Origin: Escherichia coli
GTDB taxonomy: Bacteria; Pseudomonadota; Gammaproteobacteria; Enterobacterales; Enterobacteriaceae
DNA: 64,000 nt
Reading direction: 5' to 3' (one strand)
Assembly (NCBI RefSeq): GCF_016026235.1
Contig: NZ_CP065613.1
Shown: positions 1,707 to 56,777 of the stretch, one piece after another
How the letters are laid out: every line of letters begins with the position of its first letter
How positions within the stretch are numbered: position 1 is the stretch's first letter
Made by a program: the position numbers and the translations under genes
The notes under the pieces: generated by a model
Told to the model about the DNA's origin: nothing
The model's input: only the letters and a program-made list of their open reading frames with translations
Database searches by the model: none

Positions 1707-2759
1707 ATGAAAAAGTTAGTAGCCACAGCACCCCGTGTTGCTGCGCTGGTTGAGTATGAAGATCGGGCGATTTTAGCCAATGAAGTGAAAATCCGCGTGC
1801 GTTTCGGCGCACCGAAACACGGAACGGAAGTGGTCGACTTCCGCGCCGCCAGCCCGTTTATCGATGAAGACTTTAACGGCGAATGGCAGATGTTCACTCC
1901 GCGTCCGGCAGATGCGCCGCGCGGCATTGAGTTTGGCAAATTCCAGCTTGGCAACATGGTGGTTGGCGACATTATCGAGTGCGGCAGCGACGTTACCGAC
2001 TACGCGGTGGGCGACAGCGTATGCGGCTACGGCCCGCTCTCCGAGACGGTCATCATTAACGCGGTGAATAACTACAAGCTGCGCAAAATGCCGGAAGGCA
2101 GCTCGTGGGAAAACGCCGTTTGTTACGACCCGGCGCAGTTTGCCATGAGCGGCGTGCGCGATGCCAACGTGCGCGTGGGTGATTTTGTTGTGGTGGTAGG
2201 GCTTGGCGCGATTGGTCAAATTGCCATTCAACTGGCGAAACGCGCTGGCGCGTCGGTCGTGATTGGCGTCGATCCTATCGCCCATCGCTGTGATATTGCC
2301 CGTCGCCACGGCGCGGATTTCTGCCTTAACCCCATTGGTACTGACGTAGGCAAAGAGATCAAAACGCTGACCGGCAAGCAGGGTGCCGATGTGATTATCG
2401 AAACCAGCGGCTATGCCGACGCGCTGCAATCGGCGTTCCGCGGTCTGGCCTACGGTGGCACCATCTCCTATGTCGCGTTTGCCAAACCATTTGCTGAAGG
2501 TTTTAACCTCGGACGCGAAGCGCATTTCAATAACGCCAAAATTGTTTTCTCCCGCGCGTGCAGCGAACCGAACCCGGATTATCCGCGCTGGAGCCGTAAG
2601 CGTATTGAAGAAACCTGCTGGGAACTGCTGATGAACGGTTATCTCAATTGCGAAGATTTAATCGACCCGGTAGTGACCTTTGCCAATAGCCCGGAAAGCT
2701 ACATGCAGTATGTCGATCAGCATCCGGAACAGAGCATCAAAATGGGCGTTACGTTTTAA
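1707..2759 (+). CDS. ycjQ: Zn-dependent sugar dehydrogenase (MDR family)
   Basis: 350-aa ORF with GxGxxG Rossmann motif; RBS aaggag upstream; synteny. Confidence 0.9.
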   Translation: MKKLVATAPRVAALVEYEDRAILANEVKIRVRFGAPKHGTEVVDFRAASPFIDEDFNGEWQMFTPRPADAPRGIEFGKFQLGNMVVGDIIECGSDVTDYAVGDSVCGYGPLSETVIINAVNNYKLRKMPEGSSWENAVCYDPAQFAMSGVRDANVRVGDFVVVVGLGAIGQIAIQLAKRAGASVVIGVDPIAHRCDIARRHGADFCLNPIGTDVGKEIKTLTGKQGADVIIETSGYADALQSAFRGLAYGGTISYVAFAKPFAEGFNLGREAHFNNAKIVFSRACSEPNPDYPRWSRKRIEETCWELLMNGYLNCEDLIDPVVTFANSPESYMQYVDQHPEQSIKMGVTF

Positions 2760-2776
2760 TTCAAAGGAATGAAAAA

Positions 2777-3565
2777 ATGAAAATAGGCACACAGAATCAG
2801 GCATTCTTTCCGGAAAACATTCTGGAGAAATTTCGTTATATCAAAGAGATGGGCTTCGATGGTTTTGAGATTGACGGCAAACTGCTGGTCAACAATCTCG
2901 AAGAAGTCAAAGCAGCAATCAAAGAAACCGGTTTACCGGTGACCACCGCCTGCGGTGGCTATGACGGTTGGATTGGCGACTTTATCGAAGAGCGTCGTCT
3001 TAATGGCTTAAAGCAGATCGAACGCATTCTCGAAGCGCTGGCAGAAGTGGGGGGTAAGGGTATCGTCGTTCCGGCAGCGTGGGGCATGTTTACCTTCCGC
3101 TTACCGCCGATGACCTCGCCGCGTAGCCTGGACGGCGACCGCAAAATGGTGAGTGATTCCCTGCGCGTACTGGAACAGGTCGCCGCGCGTACCGGAACCG
3201 TGGTGTATCTCGAACCGTTAAACCGCTATCAGGATCATATGATCAACACCCTCGCCGATGCCCGCCGTTACATCGTCGAAAACGATCTTAAACATGTACA
3301 GATTATCGGCGATTTCTATCACATGAATATCGAAGAAGATAACCTGGCGCAGGCGCTGCATGACAACCGCGACCTGCTCGGTCATGTGCATATTGCGGAT
3401 AACCATCGCTACCAGCCGGGCAGCGGCACCCTGGATTTCCACGCGCTGTTTGAACAGCTGCGCGCGGATAACTATCAGGGCTATGTAGTGTACGAAGGGC
3501 GTATCCGGGCGGAAGATCCTGCCCAGGCGTACCGTGATTCGTTGGCCTGGTTGCGTACCTGCTAA
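2777..3565 (+). CDS. ycjR: sugar phosphate isomerase/epimerase (xylose isomerase-like TIM barrel)
   Basis: 262-aa ORF; synteny in ycj operon. Confidence 0.88.
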   Translation: MKIGTQNQAFFPENILEKFRYIKEMGFDGFEIDGKLLVNNLEEVKAAIKETGLPVTTACGGYDGWIGDFIEERRLNGLKQIERILEALAEVGGKGIVVPAAWGMFTFRLPPMTSPRSLDGDRKMVSDSLRVLEQVAARTGTVVYLEPLNRYQDHMINTLADARRYIVENDLKHVQIIGDFYHMNIEEDNLAQALHDNRDLLGHVHIADNHRYQPGSGTLDFHALFEQLRADNYQGYVVYEGRIRAEDPAQAYRDSLAWLRTC

Positions 3566-3574
3566 GAGGTCTTT

Positions 3575-4630
3575 GTGAAAAGTGCAATGACAAGCTCTCC
3601 GCTGCGGGTCGCGATAATAGGCGCAGGCCAAGTGGCGGATAAGGTTCATGCTTCGTACTACTGCACCCGCAACGATCTGGAACTGGTGGCTGTCTGTGAC
3701 AGCCGCCTTTCCCAGGCGCAGGCGCTGGCAGATAAATACGGTAATGCATCCGTGTGGGACGATCCGCAGGCCATGCTGCTGGCGGTGAAACCTGATGTGG
3801 TTAGCGTCTGCTCACCTAACCGTTTTCATTACGAACATACCCTGATGGCACTGGAAGCGGGCTGCCATGTGATGTGCGAAAAACCGCCCGCCATGACGCC
3901 AGAACAGGCGCGGGAAATGTGCGATACCGCGCGCAAACTGGGCAAGGTGCTGGCCTACGACTTTCACCATCGTTTTGCGCTCGATACGCAACAGCTGCGT
4001 GAACAGGTGACCAACGGCGTTTTGGGAGAGATTTACGTTACCACCGCCCGCGCCCTGCGTCGCTGCGGCGTTCCCGGCTGGGGCGTCTTTACCAATAAAG
4101 AACTGCAGGGTGGTGGCCCGCTGATCGACATCGGCATTCATATGCTGGATGCTGCGATGTATGTGCTGGGCTTTCCGGCGGTGAAAAGCGTGAATGCGCA
4201 TAGCTTTCAAAAGATCGGCACGCAAAAGAGCTGTGGTCAATTTGGCGAGTGGGATCCGGCAACTTATAGCGTCGAAGATTCGCTGTTTGGCACCATTGAA
4301 TTTCATAACGGCGGCATTCTGTGGCTGGAAACGTCATTTGCACTCAACATCCGCGAACAGTCGATTATGAACGTCAGCTTTTGTGGTGATAAAGCCGGTG
4401 CGACGCTGTTTCCAGCACATATCTACACCGATAACAACGGTGAATTAATGACGCTGATGCAACGGGAAATGGCAGACGACAACCGCCATTTGCGCAGCAT
4501 GGAAGCCTTTATCAATCACGTACAGGGCAAGCCCGTGATGATAGCCGACGCCGAGCAGGGGTACATCATCCAGCAACTGGTGGCGGCGTTGTATCAATCC
4601 GCAGAAACAGGGACGCGTGTGGAATTATGA
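3575..4630 (+). CDS. ycjS: Gfo/Idh/MocA-family NAD-dependent oxidoreductase
   Basis: 351-aa ORF, N-terminal Rossmann motif IIGAGQVA; synteny. Confidence 0.88.
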   Translation: MKSAMTSSPLRVAIIGAGQVADKVHASYYCTRNDLELVAVCDSRLSQAQALADKYGNASVWDDPQAMLLAVKPDVVSVCSPNRFHYEHTLMALEAGCHVMCEKPPAMTPEQAREMCDTARKLGKVLAYDFHHRFALDTQQLREQVTNGVLGEIYVTTARALRRCGVPGWGVFTNKELQGGGPLIDIGIHMLDAAMYVLGFPAVKSVNAHSFQKIGTQKSCGQFGEWDPATYSVEDSLFGTIEFHNGGILWLETSFALNIREQSIMNVSFCGDKAGATLFPAHIYTDNNGELMTLMQREMADDNRHLRSMEAFINHVQGKPVMIADAEQGYIIQQLVAALYQSAETGTRVEL

Positions 4631-6894
4631 CCAGGCCAGTAACGTTATCAGAACCCCATTTCAGCCAGCATACCCTGAACAAGTATGCATCGCTGATGGC
4701 GCAGGGGAACGGCTATCTTGGGCTTCGCGCCAGCCATGAAGAAGATTACACGCGCCAGACGCGAGGGATGTATCTGGCGGGGCTGTATCATCGGGCGGGA
4801 AAAGGTGAAATCAACGAACTGGTGAACCTGCCTGATATCTTGGGGATGGAGATTGCCATAAATGGTGAGGTTTTCTCGTTATCCCGCGAAGCCTGGCAGC
4901 GTGAACTTGACTTTGCCAGTGGAGAATTACGCCGTAGCGTTGTCTGGCGTACCAGCAACGGCACAGGTTACACCATCGCCAGCCGTCGCTTTGTTTCGGC
5001 AGACCAACTGCCGCTCATTGTGCTGGAAATCACTATTACGCCACTGGACGCCGACGCGTCAGTGCTGATTTCAACAGGTATCGACGCTACGCAAACCAAC
5101 CACGGTCGCCAACATCTCGACGAAACCCAGGTGCGGGTGTTTGGTCAGCATCTGATGCAGGGGATCTACACCACCCAGGATGGACGCAGTGATGTGGCCA
5201 TCAGCTGTTGCTGTATGGTGAGCGGTGATGTGCAGCAATGCTATACCGCCAAAGAGCGCCGTTTGCAGCAACATACCAGTGCGCAGCTTCATGCAGGCGA
5301 GACAGTGACGTTGCAAAAACTGGTGTGGATCGACTGGCGGGATGACAGGCAAGCCGTTTTAGACGAGTGGGGCAGCGCGTCGCTTCGCCAGCTTGAAATG
5401 TGCGCGCAGCAGAGTTACGACCAACTTCTTGCAGTATCAACAGAAAACTGGCGTCAATGGTGGCAGAAACGTCGTATCACGGTAAATGGCGGCGAAGCGC
5501 ACGATCAGCAAGCGTTAGATTATGCGCTTTATCATCTGCGCATCATGACGCCTGCCCACGACGAGCGCAGCAGCATTGCGGCAAAAGGCTTAACCGGCGA
5601 AGGCTACAAAGGCCACGTTTTCTGGGATACAGAAGTATTTTTGTTACCGTTTCATCTGTTTAGCGATCCGACGGTTGCCCGAAGTTTACTGCGTTATCGC
5701 TGGCACAACTTGCCAGGCGCGCAGGAGAAAGCGCGACGCAACGGCTGGCAGGGCGCGCTATTTCCGTGGGAAAGCGCGCGCAGCGGCGAAGAAGAGACGC
5801 CGGAATTTGCCGCCATTAACATTCGCACCGGGCTGCGGCAAAAAGTGGCCTCGGCGCAGGCGGAACATCATCTGGTGGCCGATATCGCCTGGGCGGTTAT
5901 TCAATACTGGCAGACCACGGGGGATGAAAGTTTCATTGCGCATGAAGGCATGGCGCTACTTCTGGAAACTGCAAAGTTCTGGATTAGCCGCGCGGTGAGG
6001 GTTAACGACCGTCTGGAAATTCATGATGTTATTGGGCCTGACGAATATACCGAACATGTCAATAATAACGCCTTCACCAGCTATATGGCGTATTACAACG
6101 TCCAGCAGGCGCTGAGTATTGCCCGCCAGTTTGGCTGTAGCGACGATGCGTTTATCCATCGCGCCGAAATGTTCCTTAAAGAACTGCGGCTGCCAGAAAT
6201 TCAGCCCGACGGCGTTTTGCCGCAGGATGATTCGTTTATGGCTAAGCCGGCGATTAATCTGGCGAAATACAAAGCGGCGGCGGGGAAGCAAACCATTCTG
6301 CTGGATTATTCACGCGCAGAAGTGAACGAGATGCAAATCCTCAAACAAGCTGATGTGGTGATGCTCAATTACATGCTGCCGGAGCAGTTCTCAGCGGCAT
6401 CGTGTCTTGCCAATCTGCAATTTTATGAACCGCGCACTATTCACGACTCGTCATTAAGTAAAGCAATCCACGGCATTGTTGCCGCACGCTGTGGCCTGCT
6501 GACCCAAAGTTATCAGTTCTGGCGCGAGGGGACTGAAATCGATCTTGGTGCTGATCCGCATAGTTGTGATGATGGTATCCATGCTGCCGCAACTGGCGCT
6601 ATCTGGCTGGGGGCGATTCAGGGTTTTGCCGGGGTGAGCGTGCGTGACGGTGAATTGCATCTCAATCCGGCGTTACCTGAGCAGTGGCAACAGTTGTCTT
6701 TCCCTCTGTTCTGGCAGGGCTGCGAATTACAGGTCACGCTCGACGCGCAGCGTATTGCGATTCGAACTTCTGCGCCCGTTTCACTGCGTTTGAACGGGCA
6801 GCTTATATCCGTGGCTGAAGAATCTGTTTTCTGTTTGGGTGATTTTATTTTGCCCTTCAATGGGACCGCTACCACACATCAGGAGGATGAATGA
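4627..6894 (+). CDS. ycjT: kojibiose phosphorylase (glycoside hydrolase family 65)
   Basis: 755-aa ORF; GH65 size and sequence; overlapping start/stop with neighbours. Confidence 0.9.
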
Positions 6895-49914: not shown

Positions 49915-50238
49915 ATGAATATGCCAACGTATCTCGCCAGAGTAGAACTATATAATGCTGAGCCAGAGGATTACGAAGGGCTTCATAAATATATGCTCTC
50001 ACTAGGATTCAGGAGAACGATCCCCCATGGAGATGGTTCGTATAATCAACTCCCGGACGGAACTTATGTTTCCGAAAAGGGCGGTGATATTTATCAAATT
50101 CGCAGCCAGATATCTGACTATGCAGACCGACTATCCGGGTATCGCGCGTCTGTTTTGTTTGCGAATTCAGTCAATGCGCATGGTATTTATACCCCGCCAA
50201 GACCCGGTGAATATCCTGCACGGCCTTCTGCTTTGTAG
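49915..50238 (+). CDS. hypothetical prophage protein (107 aa)
   Basis: aaggaa RBS 7 bp upstream of ATG; transcribed against the early-left operon; no TM segment. Confidence 0.5.
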   Translation: MNMPTYLARVELYNAEPEDYEGLHKYMLSLGFRRTIPHGDGSYNQLPDGTYVSEKGGDIYQIRSQISDYADRLSGYRASVLFANSVNAHGIYTPPRPGEYPARPSAL

Positions 50239-51368: not shown

Positions 51369-51611
51369 ATGAACAAAATTTCAACATATCGAAAACAGCT
51401 TGGGCTGTCTCAAAGACAACTTGCTGTTCAGTTAGGGTGGATACAAAGCCGACTGGCAAATTACGAAGCAAATTTTCGTACCCCTGGACTAGAGGAGTGC
51501 AGAAAAATTGTTTCTACCCTTAATCGGCTTGGCGCTCATTGTGGACTTGACGATGTATTCCCCCCAGACGGTAAGCATAGCGAAAACAGCATAGGAGCGG
51601 TTGATTCATGA
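51369..51611 (+). CDS. Cro/HTH-type regulator (YdaS-like)
   Basis: 80 aa; HTH LGLSQRQLAVQLGWIQSRLANYE. Confidence 0.75.
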   Translation: MNKISTYRKQLGLSQRQLAVQLGWIQSRLANYEANFRTPGLEECRKIVSTLNRLGAHCGLDDVFPPDGKHSENSIGAVDS

Positions 51612-52030
51612 AAATCAGGCATGAGCACATCGAATCAGTGTTGTTAGCCCTGGCAGCCGAAAAAGGGCAGGCGTGGGTCGCTAACGCAATTACTGAAGAA
51701 TATCTGCGCCAGGGGGGAGGTGAATTGTCTCTGACACCAGGCAAGGACTGGAATAATCAGCAGAACATCTATCATCGTTGGTTAAAAGGTGAAACGAAAG
51801 CGCAAAGGGAAAAAATTCAGAAACTGATCCCTGCGGTTCTGGCAATTCTTCCGCGCGAGCTGCGTCACCGACTCTGCATCTTCGATACCCTGGAACGCCG
51901 TGCATTACTGGCGGCGCAGGAAGCGTTGAGTACGGCAATTGATGCGCATGATGATGCAGTCCAGGCCGTTTACCGGAAAGCGCATTTCAGCGGCGGCGGG
52001 TCTTCCGACGATTCTGTCATTGTTCATTAA
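51608..52030 (+). CDS. YdaT-like prophage protein
   Basis: 140-aa ORF overlapping the ydaS-like stop. Confidence 0.65.
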   Translation: MKIRHEHIESVLLALAAEKGQAWVANAITEEYLRQGGGELSLTPGKDWNNQQNIYHRWLKGETKAQREKIQKLIPAVLAILPRELRHRLCIFDTLERRALLAAQEALSTAIDAHDDAVQAVYRKAHFSGGGSSDDSVIVH

Positions 52031-52093
52031 GCAAAAGTTTCCATGCTGTTTGTGCTTATTCTAAGCAACCGGGCAGCATCATACGGGGCAATT

Positions 52094-53242
52094 ATGGCCG
52101 CATTACCATACATGCAACTGTACATAGCTGATTACCTGGCTGACACCATGCATTTGTCAGCAGAGGAGCACGGCGCGTATTTGTTGCTGATGTTCAATTA
52201 CTGGCAAACAGGAAAGCCAATACCCAAAAACAGGTTGGCAAAAATTGCCCGTCTGACTAACGAGCGATGGGTTGATGTTGAACCATCCTTGCGGGAGTTT
52301 TTTTGTGATAACGGCGACGAATGGATGCATCTTCGGATTGAGGAAGATCTGGCATCTGTCAGAGAAAAATTAACCAAAAAATCAGCCGCAGGAAAAGCAT
52401 CTGTTCAGGCCAGAAGAAGCAGAAAGGAAGCAGATGTTCAAACAAAACAAGAGAGAAATTTAACAGGTGTTCAAACAGATGTTGGAGTGATGTTCGAACA
52501 TGATGCCAACACAAAGGCAACTAATAAAGATACAGATAAAGATCTAAAAACAGATCTAACCCATCCCAAACCCTTCCCTTCCGGAAGGGAGTTTCGGGAT
52601 TTTGTGGCTGGAGTGCTTGAGGGGAGATTATCTGGCGGTACTGCAGCGGAATTTTGTAATTCTGCGGTGGTTGCGTTGCAGGCTGCTGGCCTGGATGTCT
52701 GTCGTGAGTATCCGGTGCCAGAGCGTGGTGACGGTTGCGGAGGGCGGATTGATATCGTCGTGACTGACAGGAACGGTGTCCGGTGTGGGATCGAGCTTGA
52801 CCGAAATTCTCCGCGACAGAAATCACTGCTCAAAATCGGTGCTGTTGAAACCGGGATATGTGTCTTGCGGCGCAGTGATATCGCAAGGCACACCGAGCAG
52901 GGAATTCTGGTTATCGGTGGGGCTGTTCGCCAGAAAAAATTTGACCCGTTGTCAGTTGATCTGCCCGACTGGTTGCCAGAAACACTCTGGCATGAGTGGG
53001 TCCAGTTCAGGCAGGCATTGCGAAAACCGATTCGAACGGAGCAGGGCGCTAACGGGGCGATACGGGAACTGGAAAAATTCCGTCAGCAGGGTTTTACACC
53101 TGAGCAGGTGATTCGACACAGCATCGCCAATGAATACCAGGGTCTGTTCGCGCCGAAAGGTGTTCGGCCTGAGACGTTGCTCCGACAGGTTAACACCGTC
53201 TCGTTGCCGGACAGTGCGATCCCGCCAGGCTTCAGGGGGTAA
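52094..53242 (+). CDS. prophage replication protein (YdaU/DUF1376-like)
   Basis: Start at MAALPYMQLYIADYL; precedes the DnaC-like gene. Confidence 0.7.
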   Translation: MAALPYMQLYIADYLADTMHLSAEEHGAYLLLMFNYWQTGKPIPKNRLAKIARLTNERWVDVEPSLREFFCDNGDEWMHLRIEEDLASVREKLTKKSAAGKASVQARRSRKEADVQTKQERNLTGVQTDVGVMFEHDANTKATNKDTDKDLKTDLTHPKPFPSGREFRDFVAGVLEGRLSGGTAAEFCNSAVVALQAAGLDVCREYPVPERGDGCGGRIDIVVTDRNGVRCGIELDRNSPRQKSLLKIGAVETGICVLRRSDIARHTEQGILVIGGAVRQKKFDPLSVDLPDWLPETLWHEWVQFRQALRKPIRTEQGANGAIRELEKFRQQGFTPEQVIRHSIANEYQGLFAPKGVRPETLLRQVNTVSLPDSAIPPGFRG

Positions 53243-53248
53243 CAGACC

Positions 53249-53995
53249 ATGAAAAATATTGCGACAGGAGGCGTTCTGGAGCGTATCCGCAGACTGACCC
53301 CACCACATGTAACCGCCCCATTCAGAACGGTTGCGGAGTGGCGCGAGTGGCAACTTGCTGAAGGCCAGAAACGTTGCGAGGAGATCAACCGCCTGAATCG
53401 TCAGTTGCGGGTGGAAAAAATCCTGAACCGCTCCGGCATCCAGCCGTTGCACCGGAAGTGTTCGTTTGCGAATTACCGGGCGCAGAACGACGGTCAGCGA
53501 CATGCACTGAGTCAGGCGAAATCCATAGCTGACGAACTGATGACAGGCTGTACGAATTTTGTGTTCAGCGGTAAGCCCGGCACCGGAAAAAATCATCTTG
53601 CAGCCGCGATTGGCAACCGGCTGATGGCGAAGGGGCGTAGCGTGATTATCGTCACCGTGTCCGATGTCATGAGCGTGTTGCATGAGAGCTACGACAACGG
53701 CAAATCCGGTGAAAAATTTTTACAGGAGCTTTGTGGTGTTGACCTGCTGGTCCTGGATGAAATTGGCATGCAGCGGGATACGAAAAACGAGCAGGTGGTA
53801 CTGAACCAGATTGTTGATCGCCGGACGGCATCGTTACGCGGTGTGGGGATGCTGACAAATATTAACCATGCAGCGATGAATACACTTCTCGGCGAGCGGG
53901 TGATGGATCGCATGGTCATGAACGGCGGGCGCTGGGTGAATTTTAACTGGGAGAGCTGGCGTCCGAATGTTAGCCATTCGAGGGTTGTTAAGTAG
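53249..53995 (+). CDS. DnaC/IstB-like replication ATPase (YdaV-like)
   Basis: Walker A GKPGTGKNH and Walker B LLVLDEIG. Confidence 0.85.
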   Translation: MKNIATGGVLERIRRLTPPHVTAPFRTVAEWREWQLAEGQKRCEEINRLNRQLRVEKILNRSGIQPLHRKCSFANYRAQNDGQRHALSQAKSIADELMTGCTNFVFSGKPGTGKNHLAAAIGNRLMAKGRSVIIVTVSDVMSVLHESYDNGKSGEKFLQELCGVDLLVLDEIGMQRDTKNEQVVLNQIVDRRTASLRGVGMLTNINHAAMNTLLGERVMDRMVMNGGRWVNFNWESWRPNVSHSRVVK

Positions 53996-54009: not shown

Positions 54010-54432
54010 ATGGCGAAACCTTTTACTCCCGAACAGCGGGAAGAACTGAAGACGCGAATTGTGGAACTCGTGCATCAGGACGGTCGGGTCACGATTCGGC
54101 AGTTGTCAGATGAAACAGGTATCAGTCGTGCGTCTGTCGGTCGCTTATGCATGGAACTGGTCGCAAGTGGTGATGTATATAATTCTGGCTACGGGGTATT
54201 TCCCTCTGAACAGGCTCATAAAGACTGGCAAAACGCCCGCAAAAAGCTATCGAGGGTAAAGGTGAAGAAACCGGTTGTGGTTGATCCTGACCTTATCTGG
54301 TCATTACCAGACGGAGAAATACGCCGCTACGACAGGCGCCTGAATATAATCTGTCGCGAGTGCCGGAAGAGCGAAGCTATGCAGCGCGTGCTGGCGTTTT
54401 ATCAGGGGAAATTTCAGGAGGCGGTACTGTGA
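54010..54432 (+). CDS. hypothetical prophage protein with HTH-like segment
   Basis: 140-aa ORF; TIRQLSDETGISRASVGRL resembles an HTH. Confidence 0.5.
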   Translation: MAKPFTPEQREELKTRIVELVHQDGRVTIRQLSDETGISRASVGRLCMELVASGDVYNSGYGVFPSEQAHKDWQNARKKLSRVKVKKPVVVDPDLIWSLPDGEIRRYDRRLNIICRECRKSEAMQRVLAFYQGKFQEAVL

Positions 54433-54475: not shown

Positions 54476-55623
<1,148 letters not shown>

Positions 55624-55742
55624 TATGGCACCTGTGTTGTTCTGAGGTGAGCATATCACCTCTGTTCAGGTGGCCAAATTCAGTAAACCACTTCACTATC
55701 AGGCTTCAATTACCGCTGGTATTCGCATCAAAGGAGAGGAGC

Positions 55743-56191: not shown

Positions 56192-56410
56192 ATGGTTACA
56201 TTATTTAGAAAAAAATATCCGCGAAAGAGTAGAACAACAGAATTCCTGTTTCTCATTCTGTTTATCGTGTTGATGACACCGATATCCCCACTAATTTTTG
56301 TCTGGATAATCGGAAAAATAATTGAGCCAGTTATTGAATTGTATAACGACGTGGTATGGGCGTCATTCAACACACTGCACAATAAAATTAATCCGTATAA
56401 GGAAAGCTGA
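56192..56410 (+). CDS. small hydrophobic prophage protein (72 aa)
   Basis: ORF with one strongly hydrophobic segment. Confidence 0.3.
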   Translation: MVTLFRKKYPRKSRTTEFLFLILFIVLMTPISPLIFVWIIGKIIEPVIELYNDVVWASFNTLHNKINPYKES

Positions 56411-56411
56411 T

Positions 56412-56777
56412 ATGGCACTGACGAAAAAACAACGTGCAGAACTGCGCATGAAGTTCGGTGGTCGCTGCGCTTATTGCGGCTGCGAACTTGGCGAAAAGTG
56501 GCATGCAGACCATGTAAAACCGGTCATTCGTTTTGATGGAAATATGCTTCACCAGGAACGTGACGATATATCCAACATGGTACCAGCATGCCACCCATGC
56601 AATCTGCACAAGCATTGCAGTAGCCTGGAAGATTATCGACGAATTATCAGTGATGGTCGTCGTGAATTCCTTGCGTCCGGGAAAGGCAAAGCGCTGGTTC
56701 GTATGGGATTGGTTGAAATGAAATCTGACCCGGTTGTGTTCTGGTTTGAAAAATATCAAGAAGGGGCTACGGCATGA
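56412..56777 (+). CDS. HNH endonuclease
   Basis: CAYCGCEL...HADHVKPV...PACHPCNLHK motif set. Confidence 0.75.
   Translation: MALTKKQRAELRMKFGGRCAYCGCELGEKWHADHVKPVIRFDGNMLHQERDDISNMVPACHPCNLHKHCSSLEDYRRIISDGRREFLASGKGKALVRMGLVEMKSDPVVFWFEKYQEGATA

Follow-up and report, generated by a model that had tools for sequence, protein, structure and literature searches.

A PD-(D/E)xK-fold domain inserted in the YdaU-type replication initiator of a Rac-like prophage belongs to a domain family of phage replication modules

The ydaU-type gene of a Rac-like prophage, found in a 64,000-nucleotide stretch of Escherichia coli DNA (hereafter the window), encodes a three-module, beads-on-a-string replication initiator, the middle module of which adopts a nuclease fold and is carried by an in-frame cassette. 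Taken as a whole, the data are best explained by a three-module initiator with an inserted DNA-processing nuclease-fold domain, a reading to which we assign a probability of roughly 60%. That a strongly conserved module separates the DNA-binding part from the helicase-recruiting part in many unrelated initiators suggests that some phages start replication with an additional step not yet described.

The gene lies on an uninterrupted plus-strand open reading frame that ends at position 53242. Translation from the ATG at 52043, the start chosen by PGAP and by the GenBank submitters, yields 399 aa, and translation from the internal ATG at 52094, used in the first-pass annotation of this DNA, yields 382 aa; residues are numbered throughout according to the 382-aa form. 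The exact 399-aa protein is deposited in GenBank from E. coli under the name 'DUF1376 domain-containing protein', and its 90%-identity cluster comprises 408 members, including proteins of Shigella sonnei, Shigella flexneri and Salmonella. The allele of E. coli VL40 is 99.9% identical to the window gene. The gene, its modules and its immediate neighbours are arranged as follows.

51608..52030, plus strand: ydaT (CII-like), directly upstream in the operon (phrog_163 'CII-like transcriptional activator', E 1.1e-36)
52043..53242, plus strand: ydaU-type replication initiator gene with cassette, 399 aa from ATG 52043
52106..52465, plus strand: N-terminal module, DUF1376 plus a long helix (80–124), folded residues 11–124 (Pfam, PHROG, AlphaFold2)
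52472..52561, plus strand: linker, disordered, low-complexity and AT-rich, residues 127–156 (pLDDT, GC content)
52556..52933, plus strand: cassette, 378 bp in frame, residues 155–280 (DNA and protein alignments with canonical ydaU and the M19 allele)
52583..52918, plus strand: PD-(D/E)xK-fold core, residues 164–275
52742..52822, plus strand: motif GRIDIVVTDRNGVRCGIELDRNSPRQK, quoted in the first-pass annotation, residues 217–243 (column conservation in the family, HMMER alignment)
52961..53239, plus strand: DnaT-CTD-like C-terminal module, residues 290–382 (PDB, PHROG, AlphaFold2)
53249..53995, plus strand: ydaV, the next gene, a DnaC-like helicase loader (phrog_50 'DnaC-like helicase loader', E 5.3e-83)

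A DUF1376-like N-terminus and a replication-protein-like C-terminus had been proposed from the sequence, and both assignments held. Pfam DUF1376 matched residues 5–87 (E 6.7e-25, 87.7 bits against a cut-off of 30.1), which places the protein in the YdaU/DUF1376 family, and the best PHROG was phrog_6451 'primosomal protein' (E 2e-116), which aligned in two separate parts flanking the cassette. The N-terminal module is the presumed origin- or DNA-binding part of the protein, for which we infer DNA binding. The C-terminal module consists of a three-helix bundle (296–345) followed by a flexible conserved tail ending in PPGFRG, and residues 290–382 aligned both with the C-terminal domain (CTD) of DnaT (PDB 2ru8, E 1.8e-4; 9zbt, E 7.4e-4) and with the YdaU/O-type PHROGs phrog_18589, phrog_678 and phrog_2509. 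Together with phrog_6451 and a DNA identity of 96% in both flanks, the DnaT CTD match defines a collinear full-length correspondence to YdaU-type initiators. The full-length AlphaFold2 model had a mean pLDDT of 85.6 and a pTM of 0.52; local confidence was high in the N-terminal module (mean pLDDT about 89–98 per 10-residue block), in the nuclease-fold domain 164–275 (about 87–96) and in the C-terminal bundle (93–98), and fell below 50 in the linker 127–156. High local confidence at a low pTM is consistent with modules that are strung together but independent of one another.

The segment in the middle is an insertion or replacement, as an alignment with YdaU, proposed along with the first-pass annotation, established: the linker of canonical YdaU (285 aa) comprises 12 Pro-rich residues, PPLNPPRGNRGV, encoded by 36 bp, compared with 126 codons (378 bp) in the window allele. 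The segment did not align along ordinary YdaU, since canonical ydaU alleles (e.g. of FDAARGOS_497 and H7) and the phrog_6451 profile match in two pieces and skip the middle of the window gene. Among 5,426 complete E. coli genomes, 39 contained the cassette, in each case as one full-length chromosomal copy, compared with 1,505 carrying ydaU-like DNA, and a match to the window gene from end to end was found in VL40 only. In M19 and other E. coli strains, a near-identical cassette (99.5%) and the same C-terminus stand behind an unrelated N-terminal module, which belongs to phrog_2509 'replication initiation protein' (E 2.8e-73), a profile that itself lacks the cassette. The inserted domain is thus an optional module, absent from most YdaU alleles and present in a second, unrelated E. 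coli initiator backbone of the phrog_2509 type. Divergence from the canonical ydaU allele extends over approximately 85 bp 3' of the cassette, and the divergence pattern at the cassette fits that expected of mosaic recombination between phage lineages. No promoter or terminator above the shuffled expectation was detected inside the cassette.

At the exact cassette site, the cassette-free allele carries a C7-TAAAT-C7-G5 tract (locus L003, ~4463–4498; equivalent to window position 52556), which could be a recombination hotspot or merely the coding sequence of the Pro-rich linker. An intein was rejected as the nature of the cassette, which begins with LTHPKP and ends with GGAVRQ|KK without splice-junction residues, matches no intein family in Pfam and has a PD-(D/E)xK fold.

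A selfish homing-type cassette, which would cut cassette-less ydaU linkers, be copied in by repair and be tolerated in the disordered linker with no role in replication, would account for this sporadic distribution, for the presence of a 99.5%-identical cassette in two different initiator backbones, for the existence of standalone forms of the domain (see below) and for the unusual tract at the exact insertion point. However, the cassette has neither a start codon nor a promoter of its own and is found in a single copy per genome, and M19 shares with the window allele not only the cassette but also the entire C-terminal module at 98.7%, so that it was the N-terminal module which was exchanged, by ordinary lambdoid mosaic recombination. 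The unlikeness to the canonical allele beyond the downstream end of the cassette, the unchanged middle position of the domain alongside at least 22 N-terminal families of distantly related taxa, and the fixed syntenic slot of standalone members upstream of a helicase and a primase likewise argue against homing, which we regard as improbable.

The RefSeq annotation suggests yet another reading, namely that ydaU is a disrupted pseudogene whose middle is foreign or junk DNA in frame by chance. In all five cassette-bearing loci inspected (L001 5950–7149, L002 3574–4704 and L013–L015 ~2057–3187, equivalent to window 52043–53242), PGAP either labelled the flanks as two 'incomplete' pseudogene fragments, as in VL40, or left the cassette unannotated, and the prophage is partly decayed, with recE split by an insertion sequence (IS) in VL40 and putative IS-like ORFs in the window. 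Against this, the reading frame was open in five of five cassette-bearing alleles, pairwise dN/dS of the cassette was 0–0.04, and 15 of its 18 variable sites were third codon positions; between the window and UMNF18 cassettes, 11 changes were synonymous and one nonsynonymous (binomial p = 3.5e-6). In addition, the segment folds at a pLDDT of 95 and has 296 homologous cluster representatives, and the GenBank submitters annotated an intact protein. The cassette is translated and under strong purifying selection, and we attach next to no probability to the pseudogene reading, which the open frame and the dN/dS values rule out. The PGAP split looks like an annotation artefact of a family model aligning in two pieces, and in the cassette initiators inspected this labelling hides an intact, selected gene as well as a family that lacks a Pfam model.

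The central segment had been likened, on the strength of GRIDIVVTDRNGVRCGIELDRNSPRQK, to a PD-(D/E)xK nuclease core, and AlphaFold2, Foldseek and profile searches concur. Searches with the single segment sequence gave only MTES_1575 at E 0.2 in Pfam and nothing significant among PDB sequences, and profile and structure methods were thus needed to assign the fold. Modelled from a 102-sequence alignment, the domain had a pLDDT of 95.1, a pTM of 0.89 and an alpha-alpha-beta-beta-beta-alpha-beta-beta topology that contains the alpha-beta-beta-beta-alpha-beta core of the superfamily. Foldseek, which had been suggested as a check on this segment, returned PDB and BFVD lists that agree on the PD-(D/E)xK fold, and in a HMMER profile search of PDB sequences D220 and E234 aligned with the catalytic-motif Asp and Glu of AF1548 and Upx. 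We consider the fold assignment secure, and it is nearly certain that the inserted segment represents a PD-(D/E)xK fold in an insertion.

Within GRIDIVVTDRNGVRCGIELDRNSPRQK, beta2 (strand 217–224) bears D220, the 'PD' Asp, at its N-terminal end, beta3 bears E234-L-D236, and R241-x-K243 follows. These include the most conserved columns of the family (G217 100%, D220 97%, E234 99%, D236 99%, R241 98%, K243 92%). The motif is no chance pattern, because the segment finds 296 relatives and the motif contains those columns. Near-invariant in the 102-sequence alignment were E205, R211-G-D-G214, G217, D220, E234, D236, R241, K243, S244, K247 and R259, all of which are intact in the window copy; departures were confined to two moderately conserved positions, H188C and R215C. 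The E. coli/Shigella cassette has Cys at 188 (52655–52657; usually His or Gln) and at 215 (52736–52738; usually Arg) among five Cys in the domain, and C188/C215, if adjacent in the fold, would be candidates for a disulfide or metal site or for a degraded active site.

The (D/E)-x-K element on beta3 departs from the consensus, as its third position has Asp instead of Lys; R241, K243 and K247, on the loop and helix after beta3, are candidate replacement basic residues. Active enzymes with an acidic third residue exist, namely BamHI with E-x-E and the Vsr/DUF559 type with E-x-D. The E-x-D in place of (D/E)xK is thus a known variation that bears on activity and not on fold membership, and it neither proves nor excludes catalysis. 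The main rival to the preferred reading holds that the domain is an exapted, catalytically dead nuclease fold that serves only in DNA binding (e.g. of an ss/ds junction or distorted origin DNA) or as a dimerization or oligomerization hub, its conserved charged residues being kept for binding and folding and not for hydrolysis. We judge this unlikely, though by far not negligible, and put actual phosphodiesterase activity of the inserted domain slightly above even odds.

The Pfam family nearest to the domain, MTES_1575 (PF18741), was matched below its threshold of 38.2 bits both by the whole protein (13.9 bits, E 0.06) and by the segment alone (12 bits). Lenient Pfam scans of the 102 family members gave sub-threshold matches only, to MTES_1575 (27), Mrr_cat (5), Hjc (4) and BamHI (3), and even the best MTES_1575 match, at E 2.9e-5, stayed below the cut-off. 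MTES_1575 was described as a domain of Vsr-family restriction endonucleases (PMC3710099); the present family is akin to it but distinct.

With the segment alone as query, phmmer was run exhaustively against 1.84 billion cluster representatives and retrieved 296 of them at E ≤ 1e-3; a word-indexed protein search retrieved few family members. The window domain matched PHROG 1347, of 'unknown function', at E 5.2e-22 (profile positions 161–266 of 417), and so did 102 of the 102 family members (best E 3.2e-48). Source records name the relatives 'hypothetical protein', or 'DUF1376 domain-containing protein' in the case of partial sequences of the window protein's cluster, and give no domain annotation. 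The family is a distinct PD-(D/E)xK branch outside Pfam. Among the best 150 of the 296 relatives, 59 were standalone (≤170 aa, mostly 100–140) and 91 embedded in larger proteins (mostly 300–500 aa), and Pfam scans of these 150 revealed fusions to HTH_36, DUF1376, Phage_rep_O, DUF6291, MarR, other winged helices, DnaD_N and Phg_2220_C, the last being a phage C-terminal module and the others initiator-type modules. In 67 proteins, BLAST clustering separated the N-terminal flanks into at least 22 clusters and the C-terminal ones into at least 30, in 51 different combinations, the commonest partner being a DnaT-like C-terminus (n = 27). Given so many flank combinations, the nuclease-fold domain is the fixed centre of a three-module architecture whose flanks have been extensively shuffled. 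Context was checked for five embedded members (the window, Providencia phage PSTCR7lys, P0012, P0011 and P0016); each lies in a phage early operon and has a DnaC/IstB-like loader gene, a DnaB helicase gene or both directly behind it.

Many of the PD-(D/E)xK relatives found are defence nucleases (Upx, Can2, Card1, McrC, Shedu, HamA, Cas4), exclusion genes are common in prophage early regions, and the neighbouring gene at 54010–54432 matches a 'Ren-like exclusion protein' PHROG; the nuclease might hence act in inter-phage or host conflict, attacking competitor or host DNA (exclusion, anti-defence) while merely riding on replication proteins. Nevertheless, the window domain matched none of the known defence proteins in PADLOC-DB, and among the 102 family members PADLOC gave only weak matches to Cas4 (8/102, best E 1.6e-4) and DruK, which reflect the shared fold; membership of a defence system was rejected on these grounds. 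The fusion partners, moreover, are initiator modules and not sensors or toxin partners, and their fixed order, with the domain between the modules that bind DNA and those that recruit the helicase, favours action in cis, so that a conflict role appears very improbable.

In its standalone form, the domain occupies a slot that is fixed in the Stx2a phage P13374 and in Salmonella and Xenorhabdus prophages: cI, cro, a small ORF (phrog_852), a gap of ~210–250 bp, the domain, an SF2 DEAD/ResIII helicase and a Zn-ribbon/Toprim primase, followed by Q directly (Salmonella, Xenorhabdus) or by nin-region genes and then Q (P13374). The Salmonella protein matched PHROG 1347 at E 9.3e-46. The member in P13374 is the following.

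L004 4926–5303: ORF35 of phage P13374, standalone member directly upstream of the eru1A helicase gene

Homology of ORF35 to the window domain was supported by hhalign (probability 98.8%, E 5.5e-17), and the phi191 protein matched the domain in Foldseek at E 3e-9; the same ORF lies upstream of eru1A in TL-2011c and phi191. Eru1 phages (TL-2011c, P13374, phi191) are described as lacking O and P and as carrying a unit of eru1A (helicase), eru1B (Toprim) and eru1C instead, and this replication region has been associated with unstable lysogens (Llarena et al., 2021, PMC8044961). That paper, in the passages on which this account draws, neither names nor discusses the ORF preceding eru1A, which may be a fourth component of the Eru1 unit or its initiator. 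The domain thus recurs as an overlooked ORF that heads the Eru1 unit in the Stx2a phages responsible for the Norwegian outbreak of 2006 and the German one of 2011.

Other standalone members follow a repressor/Cro pair or lie close to genes of recombination, among them those for a RuvC-like resolvase, YqaJ, RusA and VRR-NUC. The non-coding gap 5' of the standalone gene (L016 5751–6000, L018 5771–6000, L004 4719–4925) could be an origin or regulatory region; it contains inverted repeats (e.g. L018 5789–5807 with 5966–5984; L004 4725–4759), and no origin-like iterons were found in these gaps. The idea of a split initiator, in which separate N- and C-module genes flank the standalone copies, was rejected on weak support: one upstream neighbour was MarR-like at E 5e-4, another was a RuvC-like resolvase, and the downstream genes matched nothing.

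These data show that the family is large and unannotated and is devoted to phage replication modules, where it forms the middle part of initiators or stands alone in the initiator slot. The protein sequence itself (in databases) and the fold superfamily are already known. The family, with no Pfam model and a PHROG of unknown function, appears to be undescribed, as do its dedicated tie to phage replication modules as a middle domain of initiators and its occurrence in the Eru1 unit as an ORF that has been overlooked; among open-access papers and preprints, none was found that describes a nuclease fold in YdaU or in O-type initiators.

Characterized lambdoid-type initiators recognize and melt the origin and recruit the helicase, and we know of none with a nuclease-fold module. 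Helicase loading has been divided into localization, DNA processing that exposes single-stranded DNA, and recruitment of the helicase or its loader (PMC13377028). In the three-module initiator proposed here, the DUF1376 module would localize the complex at the origin, and the inserted domain would supply the DNA-processing step between origin localization and helicase loading. Its basic residues R211, R241, K243, K247 and R259 would bind origin-proximal DNA, and the putative metal-binding acidic cluster of E205, D213, D220, E234 and D236, in which the catalytic motif takes an E-x-D/E form like that of BamHI or Vsr, would most probably nick or cut a single strand; as an alternative minimum, the domain would clamp a distorted or branched structure. 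On the single-stranded DNA so exposed, the DnaT-like domain would form filaments and YdaV would deliver the host DnaB. It is the placement of the domain between a localizing module and modules handling single-stranded DNA and DnaB that leads us to favour metal-dependent nicking or cutting of DNA at or near the origin, or at the least the clamping of a structure. That the role of the inserted domain lies in replication is, in our view, highly probable. We would further advance, as a tentative idea at clearly less than even odds, an unrecognized class of origin-processing nucleases with the window protein as its first example. In this class, a PD-(D/E)xK nickase within or beside theta-type phage initiators would cut or distort origin DNA to create a single-stranded entry site for helicase loading (or a 3'-OH), and the standalone form in Eru1 Stx2a phages would be the missing initiator or origin-recognition factor of their replication module, which has been linked to unstable lysogeny and high virulence.

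The early operon of the window is of the Rac type, with a cI-like repressor, a cro-like gene, ydaT, the ydaU-type gene and ydaV; in relatives, ydaV is annotated as 'ATP-binding protein' or ydaV, and ydaT likewise as ydaT. Inside ydaU, just 5' of the cassette, lies an AT-rich patch (52440–52559, GC 0.325), and TGATGTTSAA-like words occur at 52188, 52273, 52432 and 52488 (cluster 52188–52497), with a palindrome at 52480–52511. Patch and words (52186–52559) recall the lambda origin inside gene O and might be related to Rac oriJ. The words were rejected as iterons, their window-wide count (18 versus 11.8 ± 3.3) not being above chance. Upstream, an ORF of 107 aa (49915–50238, plus strand), beginning MNMPTYLARVELYNAEPEDYEGLHKYM, lies between the genes for a Rha-family regulator and DUF1391; it had no Pfam match, and PGAP left this stretch unannotated in the near-identical VL40 locus. 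Downstream, two consecutive minus-strand ORFs at 54476–55659 (112 and 272 aa) form a putative IS3-family orfA/orfB pair, which directly follows the DUF977/Ren-like gene and breaks the prophage early region; VL40 has a DUF4406 gene there. A 151-aa protein encoded at 56322–56777 (plus strand) in a nin-like region matches Pfam HNH at E 3.2e-6 and represents a second, unrelated nuclease gene in the prophage.

Canonical Rac YdaU (DUF1376; phrog_6451) resembles the window protein in its N-terminal and distal C-terminal modules, at ~96% DNA identity, and in its operon (racR/cI-like, ydaS/cro-like, ydaT, ydaU, ydaV), but has the 12-residue Pro-rich linker in place of the 126-residue cassette with its folded nuclease-like domain; the function of ydaUVW is listed as undetermined (PMC11014345). 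The CTD of E. coli DnaT aligns with residues 290–382 and has an identical C-terminal PDSxIPPGFRG tail, whereas DnaT has neither DUF1376 nor a nuclease-fold domain, and with 15.6 bits against the NCBIfam DnaT cut-off of 201 the window protein is no DnaT orthologue. Lambda O-type and other modular phage initiators share with it an N-terminal origin-binding domain, a flexible linker, a C-terminus that recruits the helicase or loader, and an adjoining helicase or loader gene. To our knowledge, the linker of lambda O and of the other characterized theta-type initiators contains no domain with an enzymatic function. Phage_rep_O itself occurs in some family members (e.g. that of Providencia phage PSTCR7lys), whereas the window protein has no Phage_rep_O match.

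With the PD-(D/E)xK superfamily, in which the nearest named relatives are MTES_1575 (Vsr-type restriction endonuclease), Mrr_cat (AF1548, Upx) and BamHI, the inserted domain shares the alpha-beta-beta-beta-alpha-beta core, the Asp at the start of beta2 and the Glu on beta3. Its G-D-x-G-x-x-D stretch is similar to the Mrr-like motif in Upx and AF1548, and its acidic third position on beta3 resembles the E-x-E of BamHI and the E-x-D of Vsr/DUF559. The family differs from Pfam families, none of which matched at the gathering threshold, by its own signature, RGDG...D...ExDR..PRxKS..KL, and by its dedicated phage-replication context. Finally, the Eru1 ORF is a member of the same domain family but, unlike the window domain, is a separate 125-aa protein that accompanies an SF2 helicase and a Toprim primase instead of being fused to DUF1376 and DnaT-like modules, and it differs in residues by E205N, K243R and a two-residue deletion in the RGDG loop.
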